Source: Candidatus Microgenomates bacterium
GTDB taxonomy: Bacteria > Patescibacteriota > Microgenomatia > UBA8517
NCBI GenBank assembly: GCA_049519355.1
Contig: JBEKQV010000003.1
Location: forward strand, 83,646-147,645
Reading direction: 5' to 3'
Length of the DNA stretch: 64,000 nucleotides
Shown: piece by piece, positions 231 to 58,484 of the stretch
How positions within the stretch are numbered: the stretch's first letter is position 1
Layout: each line of letters begins with the position of its first letter
Position numbers and translations under genes: made by a program
Notes under the pieces: model-generated
The model's input: only the letters and a program-made list of their open reading frames with translations
Told to the model about the DNA's origin: nothing
Database searches by the model: none

Positions 231-1400
231 TTATTTCGCAGATTTCTTCTTTAACTCCGTTAAGTAAAACGCAGCAAAGAAAGTTGTAAGAGGAACGGCT
301 GCCACAAGTCCAATACTTCCCGATAAAGTTCTGACGGCTTCCTCAATAATCAGTCCGTCATTAAGTATCAGCCAGCTCGGAGAATGATTTACATTTAGAA
401 TTATCATCAAAAATATAGGAAGTCCCGAACCGGCGTATGCAAGAACCAGAGTGTTAACAAGAGACGAAATATGCTCTCTTCCGATTGAAAGGCCTGCAGC
501 AAAAAGTTGACGGAACTTTAGAGCCGGGTTTGCCTTAGCAAGCTCGAAAACTGACGCGGAAAGTCCGGTGGTCACATCATCAAGAACACCTAAAGCCCCT
601 ATTAATATTCCCCCAAGAAGAAGTCCTCTGAAATCGATATTACTGGTTGCTCCGAATCTCAAAGACGCCGCGTCTTCACTCCCCAATCCTGTAAGAAAAG
701 TAAGTTTTACAAAAAGAGTTGAGAGAATTCCTATTCCGACAAGAGTAATAAAGGTCGAAAGAACCGCAATGGAAATTTTCGTTGAAAATCCGTGAGCCAG
801 ATAAATAGTCGTAACCATTATGATGAGACAGCCAATAATGCTAATGGTTAACGGATTGTGCCCCGCCAAAATTTCGGGAACAATAAATTTAAGGATTACG
901 GCAAGGCTTATGACCATTCCGACGATTGATCCAACACCTTTCCATTGACTTAAGAGAATTATTATCAGAAAAAATAAAATGATAATAGGCCAAACGGAAT
1001 TCAATCTGTATTCATCGGTTATTTGATATGTCGCCTGATTTCCGGGTCCCAAAGTTTTGTCAATTACCACCGTGTCCCCGACATTTATCAACTGATCCTT
1101 CATCAGGTTCATATCCTTCCCGTATTCAATCGTCATCTCTTTTCCCGCCATGTCACCATTCAGAAATTTTACTTCAACCTCCTGAAAAGGATTCGTCCCA
1201 GCGTTTGTCACTAATTCGCCATTTGATAGTGCCACAACCGTTGCCCGGTAAAAAGTGTCAGGCGCCGGTACCGAACTTTGAGCCTTGGCTATCCGTGAAG
1301 ACAAAATTACCAATAAAGTAAAAATTACAACAACACTAAATATTTTCTTTAACATTGCGGACAGATAATTATACCAGCTGTTGGGGGGTGTTACCTCCAA
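231..1400 (-). CDS. YibE/F-family integral membrane protein
   Basis: 389-aa ORF. N-terminal signal/TM, a soluble segment (VVALSNGELV...EYGKDMNLMKDQLINVGDTVVID), then about 8 TM helices typical of the YibE/F family. Internal Met16 (top coordinate 1355) would avoid a 32-nt overlap with the next gene. Confidence 0.55.
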   Translation of the reverse strand: MEVTPPNSWYNYLSAMLKKIFSVVVIFTLLVILSSRIAKAQSSVPAPDTFYRATVVALSNGELVTNAGTNPFQEVEVKFLNGDMAGKEMTIEYGKDMNLMKDQLINVGDTVVIDKTLGPGNQATYQITDEYRLNSVWPIIILFFLIIILLSQWKGVGSIVGMVISLAVILKFIVPEILAGHNPLTISIIGCLIIMVTTIYLAHGFSTKISIAVLSTFITLVGIGILSTLFVKLTFLTGLGSEDAASLRFGATSNIDFRGLLLGGILIGALGVLDDVTTGLSASVFELAKANPALKFRQLFAAGLSIGREHISSLVNTLVLAYAGSGLPIFLMIILNVNHSPSWLILNDGLIIEEAVRTLSGSIGLVAAVPLTTFFAAFYLTELKKKSAK

Positions 1401-2355
1401 TCATAGGAGGAATATTTGAATTCTTTTTACCTTTTCCTTTTTGAACAACAACTATTAAACCTATTACAACAATTCCCGAAACGATAAGAATAATGGCCAG
1501 ATTTTTAAAAGTTGAAGTTCCGGTTTCCTGGGTCGGAATAGGGGTTGGTGATCCCATTATGTCGGATGTTACATCAACCGGTGTGTCGGTTGGATTAACC
1601 AAATCCGAAGTGGTAGGCAAAACTTCAGGAGCAATCGTCGGTTCGGGGGTTGGGGCGGGAGTTGCCGGAAGCGGGGCCGCAACAACCGACATTTCATTGG
1701 AAAAGGCGCTTGCTCCACAGTTATTACTTGCGGCGACCACAAAATAATACTTCGTATCCCCCATTAAACTTCCGATTGTTGTCGAAGTTGTCCCCTGCCC
1801 GCCTACATTCGGATTCCCGTAAACATACTTTCCGGAAGTAATCCCATAAGAAACCAAATAATTACTTACAGGGTTTGCCGAATCGGTCCAACTCAAAGTT
1901 GCGGTGTGATCGGTAGTAGATGTAACCGAATTAAGTACGGGCGCGGCAGGAACATTTGAGCATCCCAGTGTCGCCGAATAAAAAGTTACAGTAAACCAAT
2001 CGGTAAAGGTTGCTGAATTTGTATTGTCCGTCAAGGTTACATTTGTAGTCCCCGCTGTTGTGGACGTTATAGTAAAAGTTGCATTACCGCTACCGTCGGT
2101 TGTTTGGGAATTATTAAAGACTGCCGTGCCGTCGTTTGAAGAGGAGAGACTGATTGAATCCGATGTAACGTTATTTCCGGAGGAATCTTCCAGATGAACA
2201 GAAATGGTACCTGTTGTGGTTCCGTCAGCAGGGAGCGAGCTAGAAGGAGCAGTGTAACTGGAATTCGATTGGCTGGGAGGGCCGCTGGCAAAAATTAATG
2301 TGGGGAGAGATAAAAAACCTAAAAAAACCAGGATTAGTGCCGCCAGTTTTTTCAT
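1369..2355 (-). CDS. Cell-surface protein: signal peptide, Ser/Thr-rich region, fibronectin-III-like domain, Pro/Thr linker, C-terminal TM anchor with a KGKGKK tail
   Basis: N-terminus MKKLAALILVFLGFLSLPTLIFA. FN3-like stretch ATLSWTDSANPVSNYLVSYGITSGKYVYGNPN...TKYYFVVAASNNCGASAFSNE. PT-rich PLPATPAPTPEPTIAPEV. C-terminal hydrophobic LAIILIVSGIVVIGLIVVV followed by QKGKGKK. Confidence 0.5.
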   Translation of the reverse strand: MKKLAALILVFLGFLSLPTLIFASGPPSQSNSSYTAPSSSLPADGTTTGTISVHLEDSSGNNVTSDSISLSSSNDGTAVFNNSQTTDGSGNATFTITSTTAGTTNVTLTDNTNSATFTDWFTVTFYSATLGCSNVPAAPVLNSVTSTTDHTATLSWTDSANPVSNYLVSYGITSGKYVYGNPNVGGQGTTSTTIGSLMGDTKYYFVVAASNNCGASAFSNEMSVVAAPLPATPAPTPEPTIAPEVLPTTSDLVNPTDTPVDVTSDIMGSPTPIPTQETGTSTFKNLAIILIVSGIVVIGLIVVVQKGKGKKNSNIPPMIGGNTPQQLV

Positions 2356-2402
2356 TTACACCATAGTACTTTTGATAGCTGAGAACTGACTGAAAGTAGA
2401 TA

Positions 2403-3593
2403 CTATTTTGGGAAACCAGGGTTTATATAATTTTTAAGCTTGGAGATTTGCCACATAAGTACTGAATTTAAAGTCAGTATTAAAACAAAAATTAGGATTA
2501 GAGCGTTCCCTCCCAAAAAAATTCCTCCGATTAGGGCAACTATTGCCGCGCCCATAATGGTCACAACGTTATCCATTCCGATTCCGACCAACGCATCACC
2601 AATTCGTCCTTTAGGATTGGTGGTGTAGTCATGAATAACAAGAATCTCGCCGAGACACCCGACCACACCGGTTAACACTCCGGAAATGACAAAAGGAAGG
2701 CCCGTAATCACCGAAAAAGTTTCAACAGCTGTGACCATCGCCTCGGCTGCCAGAAGAATAGCCCCGCCAGATATTAAAAGATGCAGCCAGATGGTTACAC
2801 CGGATTTATGTTCGTAATACCTTTCTTCATTTTCAATTTCCGGTACGGGGCTTTTTTCTCTCTTGGTTTTTCTGAAACGAAAAATGATCACGATTGTTAA
2901 AACCAAAATCAAAAGCCCTATGGGCCTGACCAGCTGATATAAATCCCCAGTAATTCCGGCCGGAGGATTTGCAATCCTTCCAAAAATAACCATGCTAACC
3001 GCAACCACCATAGTCAAAAGTGTAAGTGCATTAATTACATCCATAGAGATATCAATTTCCTCCATCGCCGGCAGGTTTATGTGCTGACTCATTGGTTTAA
3101 CAGTTCCACCCTTTTTCAAAAAAGGAAAAATATTTATCGGATGGCCCAGTCTGTTGGCACTATTTTGCCGGAAAACGCACCAAATTGCGTAACCAATGTT
3201 ATAAATATTTGAGCCGAAAGTTGTCGCGGCGGCAATAATTGCAAAGTTTATCGCAGCAGCATAATCGGAATCCCGAAGCCTTAAGCTTATTACCGCGGCA
3301 ACAATTCCCAAAACCATGTCAGGAAAAGCAGTTCCAACCGATTGAAGCACACCGCCGGCAATTTTTGTCCGTTCACTTAAAACCTCTGTCGTCTCCTCGA
3401 TAATTCCCGCCGTCCCCTGAAGAACATAAAATGCTCCAAATCCGATAATAAGAATTATTCCCAGTATTTTCACCCAAAATGAGTTTCCGGAAGCTAAAAA
3501 ACCAACGACGTAAAACTGCAAAAAAGCTCCAACAACAAGCATGCTTAAAATGTATATGTACCTTCTTTGCTGAAATTTTTCAAACATAACCAA
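2403..3593 (-). CDS. Ca2+/cation antiporter (CaCA, YrbG-like) family membrane protein, putative
   Basis: 396 aa, about 10 TM helices. Two internal alpha-repeat-like segments: GTAFPDMVLGIVAAVISL...GSNIYNIGYAI and LTGVVGCLGEILVIHDY...GMDNVVTIMG. Confidence 0.4.
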   Translation of the reverse strand: MVMFEKFQQRRYIYILSMLVVGAFLQFYVVGFLASGNSFWVKILGIILIIGFGAFYVLQGTAGIIEETTEVLSERTKIAGGVLQSVGTAFPDMVLGIVAAVISLRLRDSDYAAAINFAIIAAATTFGSNIYNIGYAIWCVFRQNSANRLGHPINIFPFLKKGGTVKPMSQHINLPAMEEIDISMDVINALTLLTMVVAVSMVIFGRIANPPAGITGDLYQLVRPIGLLILVLTIVIIFRFRKTKREKSPVPEIENEERYYEHKSGVTIWLHLLISGGAILLAAEAMVTAVETFSVITGLPFVISGVLTGVVGCLGEILVIHDYTTNPKGRIGDALVGIGMDNVVTIMGAAIVALIGGIFLGGNALILIFVLILTLNSVLMWQISKLKNYINPGFPK

Positions 3594-7048: not shown

Positions 7049-7546
7049 TTAGCTGGCCTGAGAGAGAGCACTTTGCAATGACTGAATAAACGCCCCGCTT
7101 GTTGCTGTGGCACCACTAACTCCGTCAACCTGTGCCGACTGGGCCTGAATTGCTTCCTGAATAAGATACGGCATTGCTTGTGAATTAATCATTCTTGATG
7201 TGCTTCGGTCACTTGGATACTGCAAAAAGGTCACGTCAGTAATATTGCCGCCGAAAATCGTAACCTGCACCTGAACATTTCCGTAAAACGCATCGGCAAT
7301 GCTCCCTACATAAGTTCCATTCTTGTATCTTCCTTGAGGTGTCGCGGCCGGAACGGGAGTTTGAAGCGGCGCCTGTCCCGGTGTCGGGCCAAGTGTCGCA
7401 ACAGGAGTATCTGTCGGCAACGGGGTTGGAATAACCGTATTTGGTTTTATAACAATCGACGAAGCGCTCTCGTTCTCCAAATTTGTGTGCAGGGCGTAGA
7501 CAACAAAAATTGTTATTACTAAAGCAGATAACAAAAGCTTTCTCAT
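7049..7546 (-). CDS. Secreted FMN-binding domain protein, the likely ApbE substrate
   Basis: 165 aa. N-terminal signal/TM MRKLLLSALVITIFVVYAL, Pro/Thr linker, FMN_bind-type domain GSIADAFYGNVQVQVTIFGGNITDV...MPYLIQEAIQAQSAQVDGVSGATATS. It contains the [S/T]GAT flavin-attachment motif. Confidence 0.65.
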   Translation of the reverse strand: MRKLLLSALVITIFVVYALHTNLENESASSIVIKPNTVIPTPLPTDTPVATLGPTPGQAPLQTPVPAATPQGRYKNGTYVGSIADAFYGNVQVQVTIFGGNITDVTFLQYPSDRSTSRMINSQAMPYLIQEAIQAQSAQVDGVSGATATSGAFIQSLQSALSQAS

Positions 7547-16450: not shown

Positions 16451-17058
16451 ATCACCAGAAGAATTGCCCCAATAATCGCCGCGGCCCCGACTCCTGCCCC
16501 GACAACCGTTGGCCAATCAGTCCCTGTAACCGGAATGGGAAGCGGGCTTGTCTGCACCAGGGGCTTTGCGGAAGCACTGGCTGTTGGTGTAGCAGATGCT
16601 GTAGCGTTTAGTAAAGCACTTCCGCTTGCCGTAGGCATGATTGTTGGTGTAGGAGAAGGTGTTGAACAAAGCGTCAAATCAGTTGTCCAGGAAGCTCCAA
16701 TTGACGGACAGCAATATTGACTGGGACCACAGGCTTTAATTTGTCCAACCATCGCAAGAGTTGATGCACAACTAAAACTCTGTGGGGTTCCGTCGGCATT
16801 TGACGGATTGCAACTTAAAAGCAACCCCGGTTGTCCGACAACCGGACAGGCTTCAGCACTAGGACAAAGATTCGCAGCAGCTCTTTCCTGAACATTTTGT
16901 TGTTGTCTTACAAGAAGAACCCCCGCAACTACGCTAAGAATCAAAAAGACTACAATAACTATTGCAATTACCAATCCTTTTTTTCCACCCTTGCCGGATT
17001 TCTTGCTTGTAACTATTTCAAAAGGAGAGTTTGTGGCAGAATCATTTTGATTGGGCAT
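16447..17058 (-). CDS. Hypothetical membrane-anchored, Cys-rich secreted protein with a PVTG-containing C-terminal hydrophobic tail
   Basis: 203 aa. N-terminal TM LVIAIVIVVFLILSVVAGVLLV, about 12 Cys in the middle (CPSAEACPVV...CNPSNADGTPQSFSCAS...CGPSQYCCPS), a Thr/Pro/Ala-rich stretch, and a C-terminal LPIPVTGTDWPTVVGAGVGAAAIIGAILLVI. Confidence 0.45.
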   Translation of the reverse strand: MPNQNDSATNSPFEIVTSKKSGKGGKKGLVIAIVIVVFLILSVVAGVLLVRQQQNVQERAAANLCPSAEACPVVGQPGLLLSCNPSNADGTPQSFSCASTLAMVGQIKACGPSQYCCPSIGASWTTDLTLCSTPSPTPTIMPTASGSALLNATASATPTASASAKPLVQTSPLPIPVTGTDWPTVVGAGVGAAAIIGAILLVI

Positions 17059-19989: not shown

Positions 19990-21498
19990 TTAATTTCCAA
20001 ATATCTCCTCTGCAGCTTTAATTATATCTTTATCTTTTCCTTCAGTCAAAACAGTTTTCACTTCCGCCTCCACAATCACCTTTTTGGGAGGAGGATCGAT
20101 AAGCGTACAAACAACCTTAGTTGGAGATTGGAATACTTTTGCGACCACATCCTCCAGAACTTTTCTGTGATTGGCGTCCTCAAGACGTTCCTTATGAAAT
20201 TTATAATAAACACCTAAAGTCAAAACTTTTCCGTCAAAGGCCATGGGCCTTGCCGCCCTGAGAAGTGCTTCGATGGAGGCATTAATCGGCTTAACCAAAG
20301 CCAAAATATTCTTCCAGGCTTCGTCGTTTACGCTCCCGCCAGTCAGAAAATCGGCGGACTGTATATGTACTTCCTCAATTGAAGCGCTTTTACCCGGCTG
20401 ACCGCTGACCGCGCCGGCGTCAGGATGTGGGTTTTGTTCCGGACGAACTGACTCTCGCCGGTCTTCCTCTGCCTCACCACACCATTTTATAACTGCAATT
20501 TCCAGCGGCATTTCTTCAATCGGAGAGGTGGAAACTTCCTCTAATGCTCCCGAAAGAAGTTCAATTAAATCAATCAAGCTTTCTTTACTTAGCTGTCCCA
20601 GCTCATCAGTACCAATTCCAACTTTTGCCAAAAGCGCCACTCTTAGTTTTCGAAGCAATGCCTCAAGAAAGTTATCGATGGATACTCCTTTAACGCTCAA
20701 CTTTCCGATCTCTTCTATCAAACTTTTTGTGTCCTTTTTAATCAGAAGTCCGATAAATTTGTCCAGATCAAAAGCTTTTTTCTTAAAAAGAAATTCTTCA
20801 AGAAATTCTTTTGTGAGATCTTTTTCTTCAGCCACCAACTGCTCCAAAATTTTTATCCCGTCTCTGAACGAACCATCTGATGCTTCGGCAATAACATTAA
20901 GGGTGTCGGAATCTATCTTAATTTTTTCACCCGTTACAACTCTTTTAAGTGATCTAACGATTTCTTCGGAAGTTGCCTTTCGGAAAGGAATATAAGTAGT
21001 TCTTGAACGGATTGTTTCTATCAGTTTTTCGGGGTTAGTTGTGGCCAAAATAAAAATAACATGTTCCGGAGGCTCTTCTAAAGTTTTAAGAAGTGCATTA
21101 CTGGCCTCTGTGGTCAACATATGCGCCTCATCAATTATGTAAATTTTTTTCTTTGCGGAAACGGGGCTTAGTTTAACCGCATCCCTTAAAATCCTGACGT
21201 CATCGATACCTCTATGGCTTGCGGCATCCATTTCAATTACATCCAGATTATTGCCGTTTGTAGTCGAGGTACACTCCTTACATTTATCGCAAGGTGTACC
21301 GTCTTTGCCTAAGTTTTCGCAGTTAATTATTTTTGCCAAGATTCTGGCGGCCGAAGTTTTTCCCGTTCCCTTAGGCCCAGCAAAAAGAAAAGCGTGTGGA
21401 ATACTTTTCTTTGAAACTATTTTTTTGAGGGATTCGCCAACGTCGCTTAAATCGAGTTCATCCAAATTTTTCGGCCGGTATTTTAAATAAAGAGTCAT
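19990..21498 (-). CDS. dnaX: DNA polymerase III subunit gamma/tau
   Basis: AAA+ Walker A GPKGTGKTS, Zn module CENLGKDGTPCDKCKEC, sensor motifs. Confidence 0.85.
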   Translation of the reverse strand: MTLYLKYRPKNLDELDLSDVGESLKKIVSKKSIPHAFLFAGPKGTGKTSAARILAKIINCENLGKDGTPCDKCKECTSTTNGNNLDVIEMDAASHRGIDDVRILRDAVKLSPVSAKKKIYIIDEAHMLTTEASNALLKTLEEPPEHVIFILATTNPEKLIETIRSRTTYIPFRKATSEEIVRSLKRVVTGEKIKIDSDTLNVIAEASDGSFRDGIKILEQLVAEEKDLTKEFLEEFLFKKKAFDLDKFIGLLIKKDTKSLIEEIGKLSVKGVSIDNFLEALLRKLRVALLAKVGIGTDELGQLSKESLIDLIELLSGALEEVSTSPIEEMPLEIAVIKWCGEAEEDRRESVRPEQNPHPDAGAVSGQPGKSASIEEVHIQSADFLTGGSVNDEAWKNILALVKPINASIEALLRAARPMAFDGKVLTLGVYYKFHKERLEDANHRKVLEDVVAKVFQSPTKVVCTLIDPPPKKVIVEAEVKTVLTEGKDKDIIKAAEEIFGN

Positions 21499-53435: not shown

Positions 53436-53630
53436 ATGTTCATACTAAAAAAGAAAAAGGGTGAAACCGATGATAAACTAATCGCCCGTTTCCGCAAAAA
53501 AACCATTGTTGAAGGTGTTATGCAAGAATATAGAGATCGCGAGCATTACAAGAAACCGTCAGAAAAAAGGAAAGAAGACAAATACCGCATCGCCCACTCT
53601 ATTGAGCTTGAGAAGAAGAGGAATTTTTAA
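53436..53630 (+). CDS. rpsU: 30S ribosomal protein S21
   Basis: 64 aa. LIARFRKKTIVEGVMQEYRDREHYKKPSEKRK matches the S21 pattern. Confidence 0.75.
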   Translation: MFILKKKKGETDDKLIARFRKKTIVEGVMQEYRDREHYKKPSEKRKEDKYRIAHSIELEKKRNF

Positions 53631-54435
53631 TCCAGGTTGCCACAAATTGCTTTCTATGCTGGCGTGTTAAACCGTATTTTTTGATGGAATTCCGGTGTTC
53701 CAATGTTCCGTATCCCTTGTTTCTCCCCCAACCATATTTCCGATATTTCGGCCTTTTGCCAAGGTTCAGCATTAGTTTATCTCTATAAACCTTGGCTATA
53801 ATTGAGGCGGCGGCAATAGAAAAGGATTTTTCGTCGCCATTTATAATCGCCTGCTGACGGCCTGATATTTTTTTGTAATACCGGCCTTTTTTATTCTTTC
53901 TACGTCTTGCGGGAAGCCCCGGAACAAAAGAAATAAAGAACGCATCGGACAAAAGAAAGTCAATCGGCTTGCCTAGTCTTTTCCGTGCATTGGAAATAGC
54001 CAACCTGAAAGCTTTTCTTGTCGCTTTTGCCATTCCTTGAGAGTTAATCAGGCCGGCACCAACTTCCCCAATTCCCCAAGCAAGTGCGCTTTCCTTTATC
54101 CAGACGGTGGCTCTTTCCCTTTGCCTCGGCCGCATCTTTTTGGAATCATTAATTGTAATCCCTTCAGGGATTACAAAGGGGTAACGCGAGTGGGTCCTGT
54201 CGGAAGCTCGTCCCGTCCGACTTTCCACGCTTGCGCGGCGGGCGCTCGACGGGACTCCCTCCGCTTCCGCCACCCACTTTGATGGAAATACCACACATCC
54301 AGTAACTATTGGTCCTGCAAAACACCCCTTTCCAACTTCATCCACTCCGGCAATAAATTTATAGCCTTTCTTTACGGCTTTTTGTTCGAAAGAAAAATCA
54401 GGAAATTTCATGCAAGGTTCGGGGATGACGGCCAA
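53599..54435 (-). CDS. rnhB: Ribonuclease HII carrying a ~30-codon GC-rich in-frame insertion
   Basis: GVDEVGKGCFAGPIV (DEVGxG), NDSKKM, IAAASIIAK and GYGTLEH motifs. The insertion VAEAEGVPSSARRASVESRTGRASDRTHS lies between the first beta-hairpin and NDSKK. Confidence 0.8.
   Translation of the reverse strand: MAVIPEPCMKFPDFSFEQKAVKKGYKFIAGVDEVGKGCFAGPIVTGCVVFPSKWVAEAEGVPSSARRASVESRTGRASDRTHSRYPFVIPEGITINDSKKMRPRQRERATVWIKESALAWGIGEVGAGLINSQGMAKATRKAFRLAISNARKRLGKPIDFLLSDAFFISFVPGLPARRRKNKKGRYYKKISGRQQAIINGDEKSFSIAAASIIAKVYRDKLMLNLGKRPKYRKYGWGRNKGYGTLEHRNSIKKYGLTRQHRKQFVATWIKNSSSSQAQ
54189..54278. repeat. GC-rich imperfect palindrome (~90 bp) with 7-bp terminal inverted repeats AGTGGGT/ACCCACT, embedded in-frame in rnhB
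   Basis: Base composition departs sharply from the flanks. Nested complementary segments GTGGGT/ACCCAC, GGAAGC/GCTTCC, GTCCCGTC/GACGGGAC. Confidence 0.45.
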
Positions 54436-58076: not shown

Positions 58077-58484
58077 ATGGCAGAAGAATCAAAGAAAGTA
58101 TCAGAAAAAGTAGAAAATATCGTTTCCGATGTTGCAAAACTTTCCGTAATGGAGTTGTCCGAATTGGTCGGAGCCTTACAGGAAAAGCTAGGAGTTTCCG
58201 CAGCTATGCCGGTTGCCGCAGCAGCGGCCCCAGCTACGGCAGGAGAAGCCCCGGCGGCTGATGCAGGCAACGCAACCCAAACTGTTGTTATGACAGGTTC
58301 GGGTGCCAATAAAATTGCTGTTATTAAGGCTTTGAGGGAAATTAATCCCAATTTAACCTTAATGGATGCAAAAGGCATGACCGAAACACTCCCCGCAGAA
58401 GTTTTGAAAGACGCTAAGGCGGAAGACGCCAAAAGCGCTTCAGAAAAACTGAAGGCAGCCGGAGCAACTGTTGAGCTAAAATAA
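58077..58484 (+). CDS. rplL: 50S ribosomal protein L7/L12
   Basis: N-terminal dimerisation helix, Ala/Pro hinge AAAAPATAGEAPAA, C-terminal domain KIAVIKALREI...LKAAGATVELK. Confidence 0.9.
   Translation: MAEESKKVSEKVENIVSDVAKLSVMELSELVGALQEKLGVSAAMPVAAAAAPATAGEAPAADAGNATQTVVMTGSGANKIAVIKALREINPNLTLMDAKGMTETLPAEVLKDAKAEDAKSASEKLKAAGATVELK

Follow-up and report, generated by a model that had tools for sequence, protein, structure and literature searches.

We describe a 90-bp GC-rich palindrome that lies in frame inside rnhB, the RNase HII gene, of a Candidatus Microgenomates bacterium (GenBank assembly GCA_049519355.1, contig JBEKQV010000003.1, positions 83,646 to 147,645; this whole stretch of 64,000 nt is called the window below). 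The segment is very probably one copy of a non-autonomous palindromic repeat that exists as dispersed selfish DNA in Microgenomates-type bacteria of the Candidate Phyla Radiation (CPR). Copies of this type, which we call family A, have a core of about 84-90 bp with GGGT...ACCC ends and fold as an imperfect hairpin of three helices; they occur in Woesebacteria, Blackburnbacteria and relatives. The gene and the parts of the window copy are as follows.

53599..54411, minus strand: rnhB (RNase HII), ATG at 54411, stop at 53599-53601, 270 aa, Pfam RNase_HII
54189..54278, minus strand: family-A palindromic repeat element (R1 covariance model, nhmmer)
54192-54275: conserved core GGGT...ACCC of the family-A element
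54189-54195: outer helix arm AGTGGGT, pairing with ACCCACT at 54272-54278 (inverted-repeat search)
54198-54207: middle helix arm TGTCGGAAGC, pairing with GCTTCCGCCA at 54263-54272
54210-54217: inner helix arm GTCCCGTC, pairing with GACGGGAC at 54248-54255
54218-54247: variable loop of the hairpin

The element is an imperfect palindrome with 70% GC in a window whose mean is 42.3% (sd 6.2%, 90-bp windows), and the 90-bp GC maximum of the whole 64 kb (72%) starts at 54185. The plus strand of 54189..54278 reads AGTGGGTCCTGTCGGAAGCTCGTCCCGTCCGAC...GTCGACGGGACTCCCTCCGCTTCCGCCACCCACT. The '+' orientation of the element corresponds to the minus strand of the window, which is the coding strand of rnhB, and rnhB uses element frame 2 to yield the peptide WVAEAEGVPSSARRASVESRTGRASDRTH. 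A first-pass annotation, made from the sequence alone, had placed a GC-rich palindrome between AT-rich flanks at 54189-54278, and its coordinates and sequence proved exact. The terminal repeats AGTGGGT/ACCCACT and the nested arms that it reported were recovered by the inverted-repeat finder as arms of 7 nt (outer), 10 nt (middle, 90% complementary) and 8 nt (inner). Its proposal to compute folding energies was followed for both nucleic acids, and both folds beat shuffled sequences: the coding-strand RNA folds at -48.7 kcal/mol (z -2.8; equalled by 0 of 200 shuffles) and the coding-strand single-stranded DNA (ssDNA) has z -3.2, the z values for the hairpin ranging from -2.2 to -3.7. Covariance model R1 scores the window copy at 102 bits (E 4e-22), its sole match in the window, and nhmmer finds the copy with an E-value of 3e-24.

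The insert makes up residues ~45-75 of RNase HII. The spacing from the DEVGxG motif to the NDSK motif is 58 aa in the window protein versus 22-28 aa in most homologues, so that some 30 extra codons are present, as the annotation had claimed. The rnhB frame is open and every catalytic motif is kept; the ATG of the gene overlaps the stop codon of the upstream ORF (ATGA). A peptide expected if the insert is translated is WVAEAEGVPSSAR. In the AlphaFold2 model the insert lies between the strand at residues 35-41 and the NDSKK region; the core is modelled confidently, and residues 52-77, with a predicted local distance difference test (pLDDT) score below 50, make the sole long segment of low confidence.

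Copies beyond rnhB were sought by scanning species-representative genomes for an exact match to the right-arm 19-mer GGGACGAGCTYCCGRCAGG. The scan gave 42 matches. Of these, 32 are partial and due to chance, almost all of them in non-CPR genomes richer in GC; the remaining 10 are full-length elements, by nhmmer and the covariance model, in AT-rich CPR-type contigs. The dispersed copies are 76-95% identical to the window copy. At least four of them are carried by Candidatus Blackburnbacteria RIFCSPHIGHO2_01_FULL_43_15b, on four contigs, and at least three, plus one diverged copy, by a second metagenome-assembled genome (MAG) labelled Gammaproteobacteria. All told we have 14 full copies in 11 genomes or strains. 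Some are intergenic and lie directly 3' of stop codons. The following genes outside rnhB carry copies.

leuS (LeuRS): in-frame copy just ahead of the editing domain
argS (ArgRS): in-frame copy between the catalytic and DALR domains
topA (TopA): in-frame copy between Toprim and the topoisomerase core
copper P-type ATPase: in-frame copy within the hydrolase domain match
two orthologous GT2 glycosyltransferases: in-frame copies between Pfam domains
1014-aa membrane protein (locus L110): in-frame tandem of an element of the related family B (described below) and one of family A (B+A)

When the 8-kb loci were compared with the 64-kb window by blastn, the element was the sole sequence shared, except for L118, which also shares orthologous genes with the window, topA among them; the window topA has no insert at the site that is occupied in Blackburnbacteria. 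The search for additional copies that the annotation had recommended thus turned up near-identical copies in unrelated genes and genomes. An rnhB-specific 'homing' element, which had been suggested by matches confined to rnhB, was overturned by the same genome scan.

The MAG binchicken_co144_799 ('uncultured Gammaproteobacteria'; L091, L095 and L119) has 41-47% GC and carries the CPR element, and its GT2 protein is roughly 70% identical to the Blackburnbacteria orthologue (judged by eye, not computed). Its contigs look like Microgenomates, and either the bin or its taxonomic label is probably in error.

The copies resemble one another far more than the genes that carry them do. The window copy is 95% identical to the copy in L110 (another gene of another genome), 92% to that in L083, which lies in rnhB in the opposite orientation, and 89% to that in L086, while rnhB outside the insert has 66-76% nucleotide identity (43-54% at third codon positions). 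Within one genome, the copies of L127 and L118 lie in different genes and match each other at 98%. The two genomes with a copy at the orthologous GT2 position carry differing subtypes there, 84% identical to each other, and one of these GT2 copies is 99% identical to the argS copy of the other genome, a pattern that favours repeated insertion, or conversion, over plain vertical inheritance.

The structure consensus derived from the alignment of the 14 copies has three helices with 21 pairs. Paired cells make up 97.6% of the total versus 30-53% when partners are slid, and 26 cells are compensatory, i.e. changed on both sides, versus 7.6 +/- 2.8 in shuffles (0 of 500 reached 26). The terminal repeats GGGT/ACCC are invariant or nearly so, and the outer helix is made family-wide of these and of one further pair, immediately outside them, that covaries and is found as C-G, U-A and G-C. 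One pair of the middle helix covaries between G-C and A-U among copies, and three pairs of the inner helix covary. The wobble cells are all G.U/G.T on the '+' strand of the element (6 versus 0 A.C), which hints weakly that folding takes place on this strand, in most hosts the template strand.

Conservation of this kind could also be expected of a cis-acting nucleic-acid structure selected for its benefit to the host and conserved for regulation (an RNase III or decay site, a pause site, an antisense or small RNA, or a DNA cruciform bound by a protein). The strong covariation that keeps three helices, sequence conservation far above that of synonymous sites, the intergenic copies immediately after stop codons and the wobble bias, which hints that one strand folds, all speak for such a function. 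We nevertheless consider it unlikely. The element stands in both orientations relative to the gene at one and the same rnhB site and is found in many genes that are unrelated in function; close relatives lack it or have it in degraded form; and in a near-identical strain it contains a stop codon and a disrupted pair. The wobble-tolerant '+' strand is the template strand, not the mRNA, in most hosts. A search of Rfam matched no family at the gathering threshold and gave only chance-level matches at E<=1.

The reading frame speaks for an insertion that proteins tolerate. All six frames of the window copy are open, and all six non-rnhB host genes enter the element in one orientation and one frame, beginning GPVGSSS..., so that the peptide GPVGSSSRPTSS..RDSLRSRHP recurs in the hosts. 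If the insertions were independent, use of the same frame by chance would be expected with a probability of about (1/6)^6. The intragenic copies examined are all in frame and free of stops in the frame used. By Pfam, the insert falls between domains in topA, leuS, argS and GT2 and inside the hydrolase match in the P-type ATPase; judging from the models, these sites are compatible with the fold, being surface loops or linkers. The element is presumably tolerated because it is stop-free and is placed in disordered loops or linkers.

These same facts bear on the idea that the insert is removed or skipped in expression, by intron-like excision or by programmed ribosomal bypass of the kind known for the 'byp' elements of Magnusiomyces mitochondria. 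The idea draws on the presence of a structured GC-rich insert in an AT-rich gene and on the one strain, L131, that has an in-frame TAA inside the element of an otherwise perfect gene. It appears very improbable to us: the intragenic copies keep the frame and lack stops, a constraint that removal of the segment would make needless; known self-splicing introns are far longer than 90 nt, and nothing in Rfam matches; and no pairs of take-off and landing codons were seen at the borders (read by eye from the sequence).

The history of the rnhB site is recorded in its relatives. RNase HII homologues of Patescibacteria range from 213 to 302 aa, with the length variation concentrated at the insert loop, and two related families of GC-rich hairpins occupy this loop: family A, the window type, and family B, which reads CGGGTGACGCGAAGCGGGG...GGCAGGACCCG. 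The two have alike termini and a different interior, and the family-A covariance model detects B at 27-40 bits. Family B is also found in both orientations and also outside rnhB, in the membrane protein of L110. Recognisable A or B modules are present in 26 of 128 rnhB protein clusters, falling into four classes of orientation and frame or into composites.

A, window orientation and frame (WVAEAEGVPSS...DRTH): 4 rnhB clusters
A, opposite orientation (GPVGSSSRPT...RDSLRSRHP): 5 rnhB clusters
B+: 8 rnhB clusters
B-: 5 rnhB clusters
composites: 4 rnhB clusters (3 A-/B+, 1 A-/B-)
family-B copies: L084 10136-10230; L087 10137-10230; L022 1719-1809
family-B copies: L002 10260-10351; L014 2590-2683; L110 3122-3212
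54178..54188: B-like 11-nt end, GGGGTAACGCG (CGCGTTACCCC on the coding strand), abutting the A copy of the window

Tandems and hybrids of A and B are seen in clusters P0002, P0004, P0050 and P0111; the A-/B+ composites comprise a two-element tandem (P0050) and hybrids with B on the left and A on the right, i.e. deleted tandems (P0002 and P0004). The peptide of the opposite orientation is the exact translation of the plus-strand ORF 54037..54282 of the window. Three related strains from one sample carry a full A element (L083), a 17-nt remnant of its right end (L001) and a 12-nt remnant GGCAGGACCCGT (L133). From the full, flipped, tandem, hybrid and remnant states it follows that elements have entered this site, been flipped or replaced there, and decayed. 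In the window itself, the 11 nt at 54178..54188 resemble the family-B terminus GGGTGACGCG... of the copies in L084, L087 and L022 and are probably, to judge by the letters, the remnant of an older or nested copy. The annotation had proposed an alignment of orthologues, and this reveals close relatives without the element or with remnants only. It had also named, as the observation that would speak against an insertion, orthologues sharing the segment at ordinary GC content; taken literally, no such orthologues were seen, and what the orthologues do have at this place are GC-rich hairpins of the same or the sister family in differing orientations and frames. A simple inversion in place does not account for the two orientations at rnhB, as an inverted window copy would be read in frame A-2 and the frame observed is A-1; the mirrored flanking remnants also contradict it, the flanks differing by remnants of 13 nt.

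A separate perfect palindrome is located in the same loop, 13 nt from the element.

54153..54176: palindrome TTGTAATCCCT/AGGGATTACAA, 11-nt arms, 2-nt gap, within the rnhB codons FVIPEGIT

Its ssDNA fold has z -5.4 (equalled by 0 of 200 shuffles), and no conservation of it was found in the rnhB homologues compared. Palindromes seem to accumulate in the rnhB loop. An AT-rich module (peptide KQISKSANKQ; DNA AAGCAAATCTGCAAATCTGCAAATAAGCAAA) recurs there in several lineages (L086 10130-10190; P0012, P0027, P0034, P0052 and P0107), and further homologues have 'NSKFQ'-type motifs in the loop; from their sequences, both modules may be further small repeat families.

Such a collection of palindromes invites the explanation that the insert was generated locally, by template switching or quasipalindrome correction in the rnhB loop, and is gene-specific and immobile. 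The loop does gather unrelated palindromes (that at 54153-54176, and others in L086), and orientation flips and one-step 'compensatory' changes are products of template switching. The explanation has very little probability, however, as the same sequence of ~85 bp is present at 76-95% identity in at least six other gene families and in spacers elsewhere. Independent local origin cannot give dispersed similar copies, which refutes it as the sole explanation, although template switching may still aid the maintenance of stems and their flipping.

The insert is present in three independent assemblies: that of the window, JGI 3300018020 (L131) and ENA ERZ27250022 (L134), with flanks 99.95-99.96% identical. 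The sole differences in 4.1 kb (L131) and in 2.5 kb (L134) fall inside the element. One change, CCG->TCG, is common to L131 and L134 and leaves a G.T wobble in place of a pair of the stem; the other, GAA->TAA, occurs in L131 only and puts a stop codon inside the element, so that rnhB is called as two genes. In this 99.95% identical strain positions 1464-1740 of L131 correspond to about 54130-54411 of the window and hold two differences, both in the element; the GAA->TAA change represents either true pseudogenisation or a mistake at the hairpin. A fourth contig (L132, JGI, another sample) ends 8 nt outside the element, its position 1 being window 54181, which would fit a break of the assembly at a repeat or at a heterogeneous hairpin. 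An assembly chimera or sequencing artefact, which the annotation had left as an alternative and to which the broken end of L132 and the confinement of the differences to the element might point, is excluded by the occurrence of the insert in three independent assemblies, by its being in frame and by the related inserts that dozens of homologues of other origin have at this site, and its probability is negligible.

How a dispersed selfish repeat of this kind might move can be outlined conditionally. The element would spread by an activity supplied in trans, and an activity that recognises single strands or hairpins (Y1/HUH-like or recombinase-like) fits better than a DDE transposase of the classical type: no target duplication recurs consistently, the whole unit is a hairpin, the outer pair covaries and the orientation is strongly biased. 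Insertions into essential genes would survive only where the 30 added residues form a harmless, disordered and hydrophilic surface loop, and the window copy would be translated within a presumably functional RNase HII. Copies may then decay by internal deletion, or be replaced or converted by other copies. Replication template switching may keep stems perfect and flip copies. Two element copies in L095 (1435-1532 and 2142-2239) flank a 154-aa ORF; this ORF was considered as a transposase and rejected, having only a phage-integrase SAM-like N-terminal fragment and no catalytic domain.

Several results weigh against the reading of the segment as dispersed selfish DNA. No further copy was found in the 64-kb window by blastn, nhmmer or the covariance model, and no copy away from the rnhB site was found by nhmmer or the covariance model in ~1.05 Mb around rnhB from 88 related loci. 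With one window copy and none in ~1 Mb, copy number per genome is low, and any recent movement in this genome is conjectural. The census of copies outside rnhB is that of one exact-match DNA scan. Peptide searches of 5.8 and 1.8 billion proteins (queries: a six-frame concatenate, an A + B peptide profile and an exhaustive 34-aa phmmer search) returned almost only RNase HII or nothing; we regard them as uninformative and attribute the outcome to modules of 30 residues and low complexity scoring too low for database-wide thresholds. No target-site duplication recurs consistently around the 14 copies, whose flanks have only sporadic repeats (CGAG at 2 copies, GC at 2, AATT at 1), and a search of the 32-64 kb part of the window for a transposase or another mobilising enzyme found none. 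Translation of the insert is a prediction from the open frame. The high conservation and covariation could reflect a selected structure rather than recent spread.

Candidates for a mobilising partner were also looked for more widely. No parent insertion sequence (IS) with matching ends was found in the window (32-64 kb) or beside the copies (a few percent of any genome covered); the proteins scanned, a small part of any genome, gave no match to Y1_Tnp or to REP-associated tyrosine transposases (RAYTs); and the A and B cores had 0 matches in viral contigs.

More tentatively, and with some doubt on our part, A and B might belong to a superfamily, not described before, of GC-rich hairpin elements that are compatible with coding and reside in CPR bacteria, moving by a single-strand- or hairpin-specific mechanism without target duplication and preferentially landing in, flipping or replacing earlier copies. 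If so, persistent hotspots would be expected, such as the beta2-beta3 loop of rnhB and the orthologous GT2 site, and the elements would be one source of lineage-specific insertions in CPR housekeeping proteins.

By analogy, the closest known system is the Rickettsia palindromic element (RPE-1 to RPE-10). As PMC10969869 sums them up, RPEs are dispersed palindromic repeats of a reduced-genome bacterium, frequently placed in frame in unrelated housekeeping genes and also found between genes, with a conserved peptide, a preferred frame and fold-compatible positions, and with no known transposase or classical target duplication. Four features of the class are found here: dispersed copies, a hairpin, a recurrent in-frame peptide and fold-compatible sites. 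The likeness is functional; sequence homology would not be expected with a Patescibacteria host. The present element differs in its hosts (CPR/Patescibacteria versus Alphaproteobacteria), in size (about 84-90 bp versus about 100-150 bp) and in being strongly GC-rich in an AT-rich genome, and here one gene loop holds two related families, both orientations, tandems, hybrids and remnants.

The annotation had seen in the insert a hairpin-forming selfish repeat like a repetitive extragenic palindrome (REP) or a MITE (miniature inverted-repeat transposable element) that the frame tolerates. A selfish hairpin repeat in unrelated genes it does appear to be; a strict REP or a classical MITE it is not. 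Bacterial MITEs (QMITE1 of Coxiella, intragenic enterobacterial repetitive intergenic consensus (ERIC) sequences, Anabaena MITEs) make in-frame fusions (PMC10969869, PMC5896051). Like these MITEs, our element is small, non-autonomous and multi-copy, has terminal inverted repeats, lies within ORFs and adds peptide segments. Unlike them, it is one long hairpin rather than terminal inverted repeats flanking unrelated DNA, and no parent IS with matching ends was found in the regions covered; the absence of a consistent target-site duplication sets it apart from a classical MITE. REPs are characterised in PMC3733652 as extragenic sequences of 20-40 bp with a GTAG or CGTC head. The system of REPs, bacterial interspersed mosaic elements (BIMEs) and RAYTs resembles ours in the GC-rich hairpin, in the location of some copies after stop codons, in orientation bias and in the plausibility of a mobiliser that recognises hairpins. 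At 84-90 bp, mostly intragenic and with a GGGT head, the present element is too long for a strict REP, which is also argued against by its place inside genes and by the lack of a GTAG/CGTC head.

Palindromic inserts in coding genes are also reported (PMC6649704) for mitochondria of yeasts and Nematomorpha (GC clusters, coding palindromes and 'byp' elements). Shared with these are GC-rich or perfect palindromes in AT-rich reduced genomes, with hairpin-driven spread or maintenance suspected; theirs are organellar, whereas the present element is bacterial, dispersed and in frame. In Nematomorpha, both arms of a palindrome are protein-coding inside a single gene; ribosomes bypass the byp elements, which do not have to be in frame. 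A full-text literature search, of incomplete coverage, found no description of such elements in CPR/Patescibacteria.

The small, streamlined genomes of CPR bacteria still carry, on this reading as selfish DNA, a palindromic repeat in essential genes without their inactivation; the hosts include aminoacyl-tRNA synthetases, topoisomerase I and RNase HII, in parallel with the reduced-genome Rickettsia. Turnover at one site, as seen at rnhB, is unusual. The element explains some odd GC-rich insertions and some length variation in CPR proteins, and accounts for split gene calls (L131, called as two genes) and contig breaks (L132). Covariance model R1 is a compact marker for recombination and horizontal exchange among uncultivated lineages. 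A mobilising activity, if found, may be a new hairpin-specific DNA transaction.

Some minor observations concern the rest of the window and the contigs compared with it. The window has four other GC-rich islands.

7329-7432, 16466-16572, 20384-20484 and 58165-58307: other GC-rich islands, encoding Pro/Ala/Gly/Thr-rich linkers

These islands were considered as further copies and rejected, being linkers and not hairpins and having no match to the element model; they encode linkers of a secreted protein and of a membrane-anchored protein, the DnaX linker and the hinge of L7/L12. Contigs of sample ERZ25039477 (L001 at about 7295-7310; L133 at 867-3339) have frameshifts in conserved genes, in the GKGCFAG region of rnhB and as split genes for L7/L12, L10 and L11; such frameshifts are characteristic of long-read assemblies left uncorrected and have nothing to do with the element.

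The gene for ribosomal protein S21 (53436-53630, plus strand) converges on rnhB (53599-54411, minus strand), and the 3' ends of the two overlap by 32 nt. The overlap also exists in several relatives (e.g. L001, L083, L084 and L087) and is limited to the stop codons in L002 and L086. Finally, the ribosomal protein L1 gene (56323-57111) encodes 263 aa, of which Pfam matches residues 145-257 only (profile positions 80-198); either its N-terminal half has diverged to an unusual degree or it contains extra sequence, and the protein has the same length in relatives.

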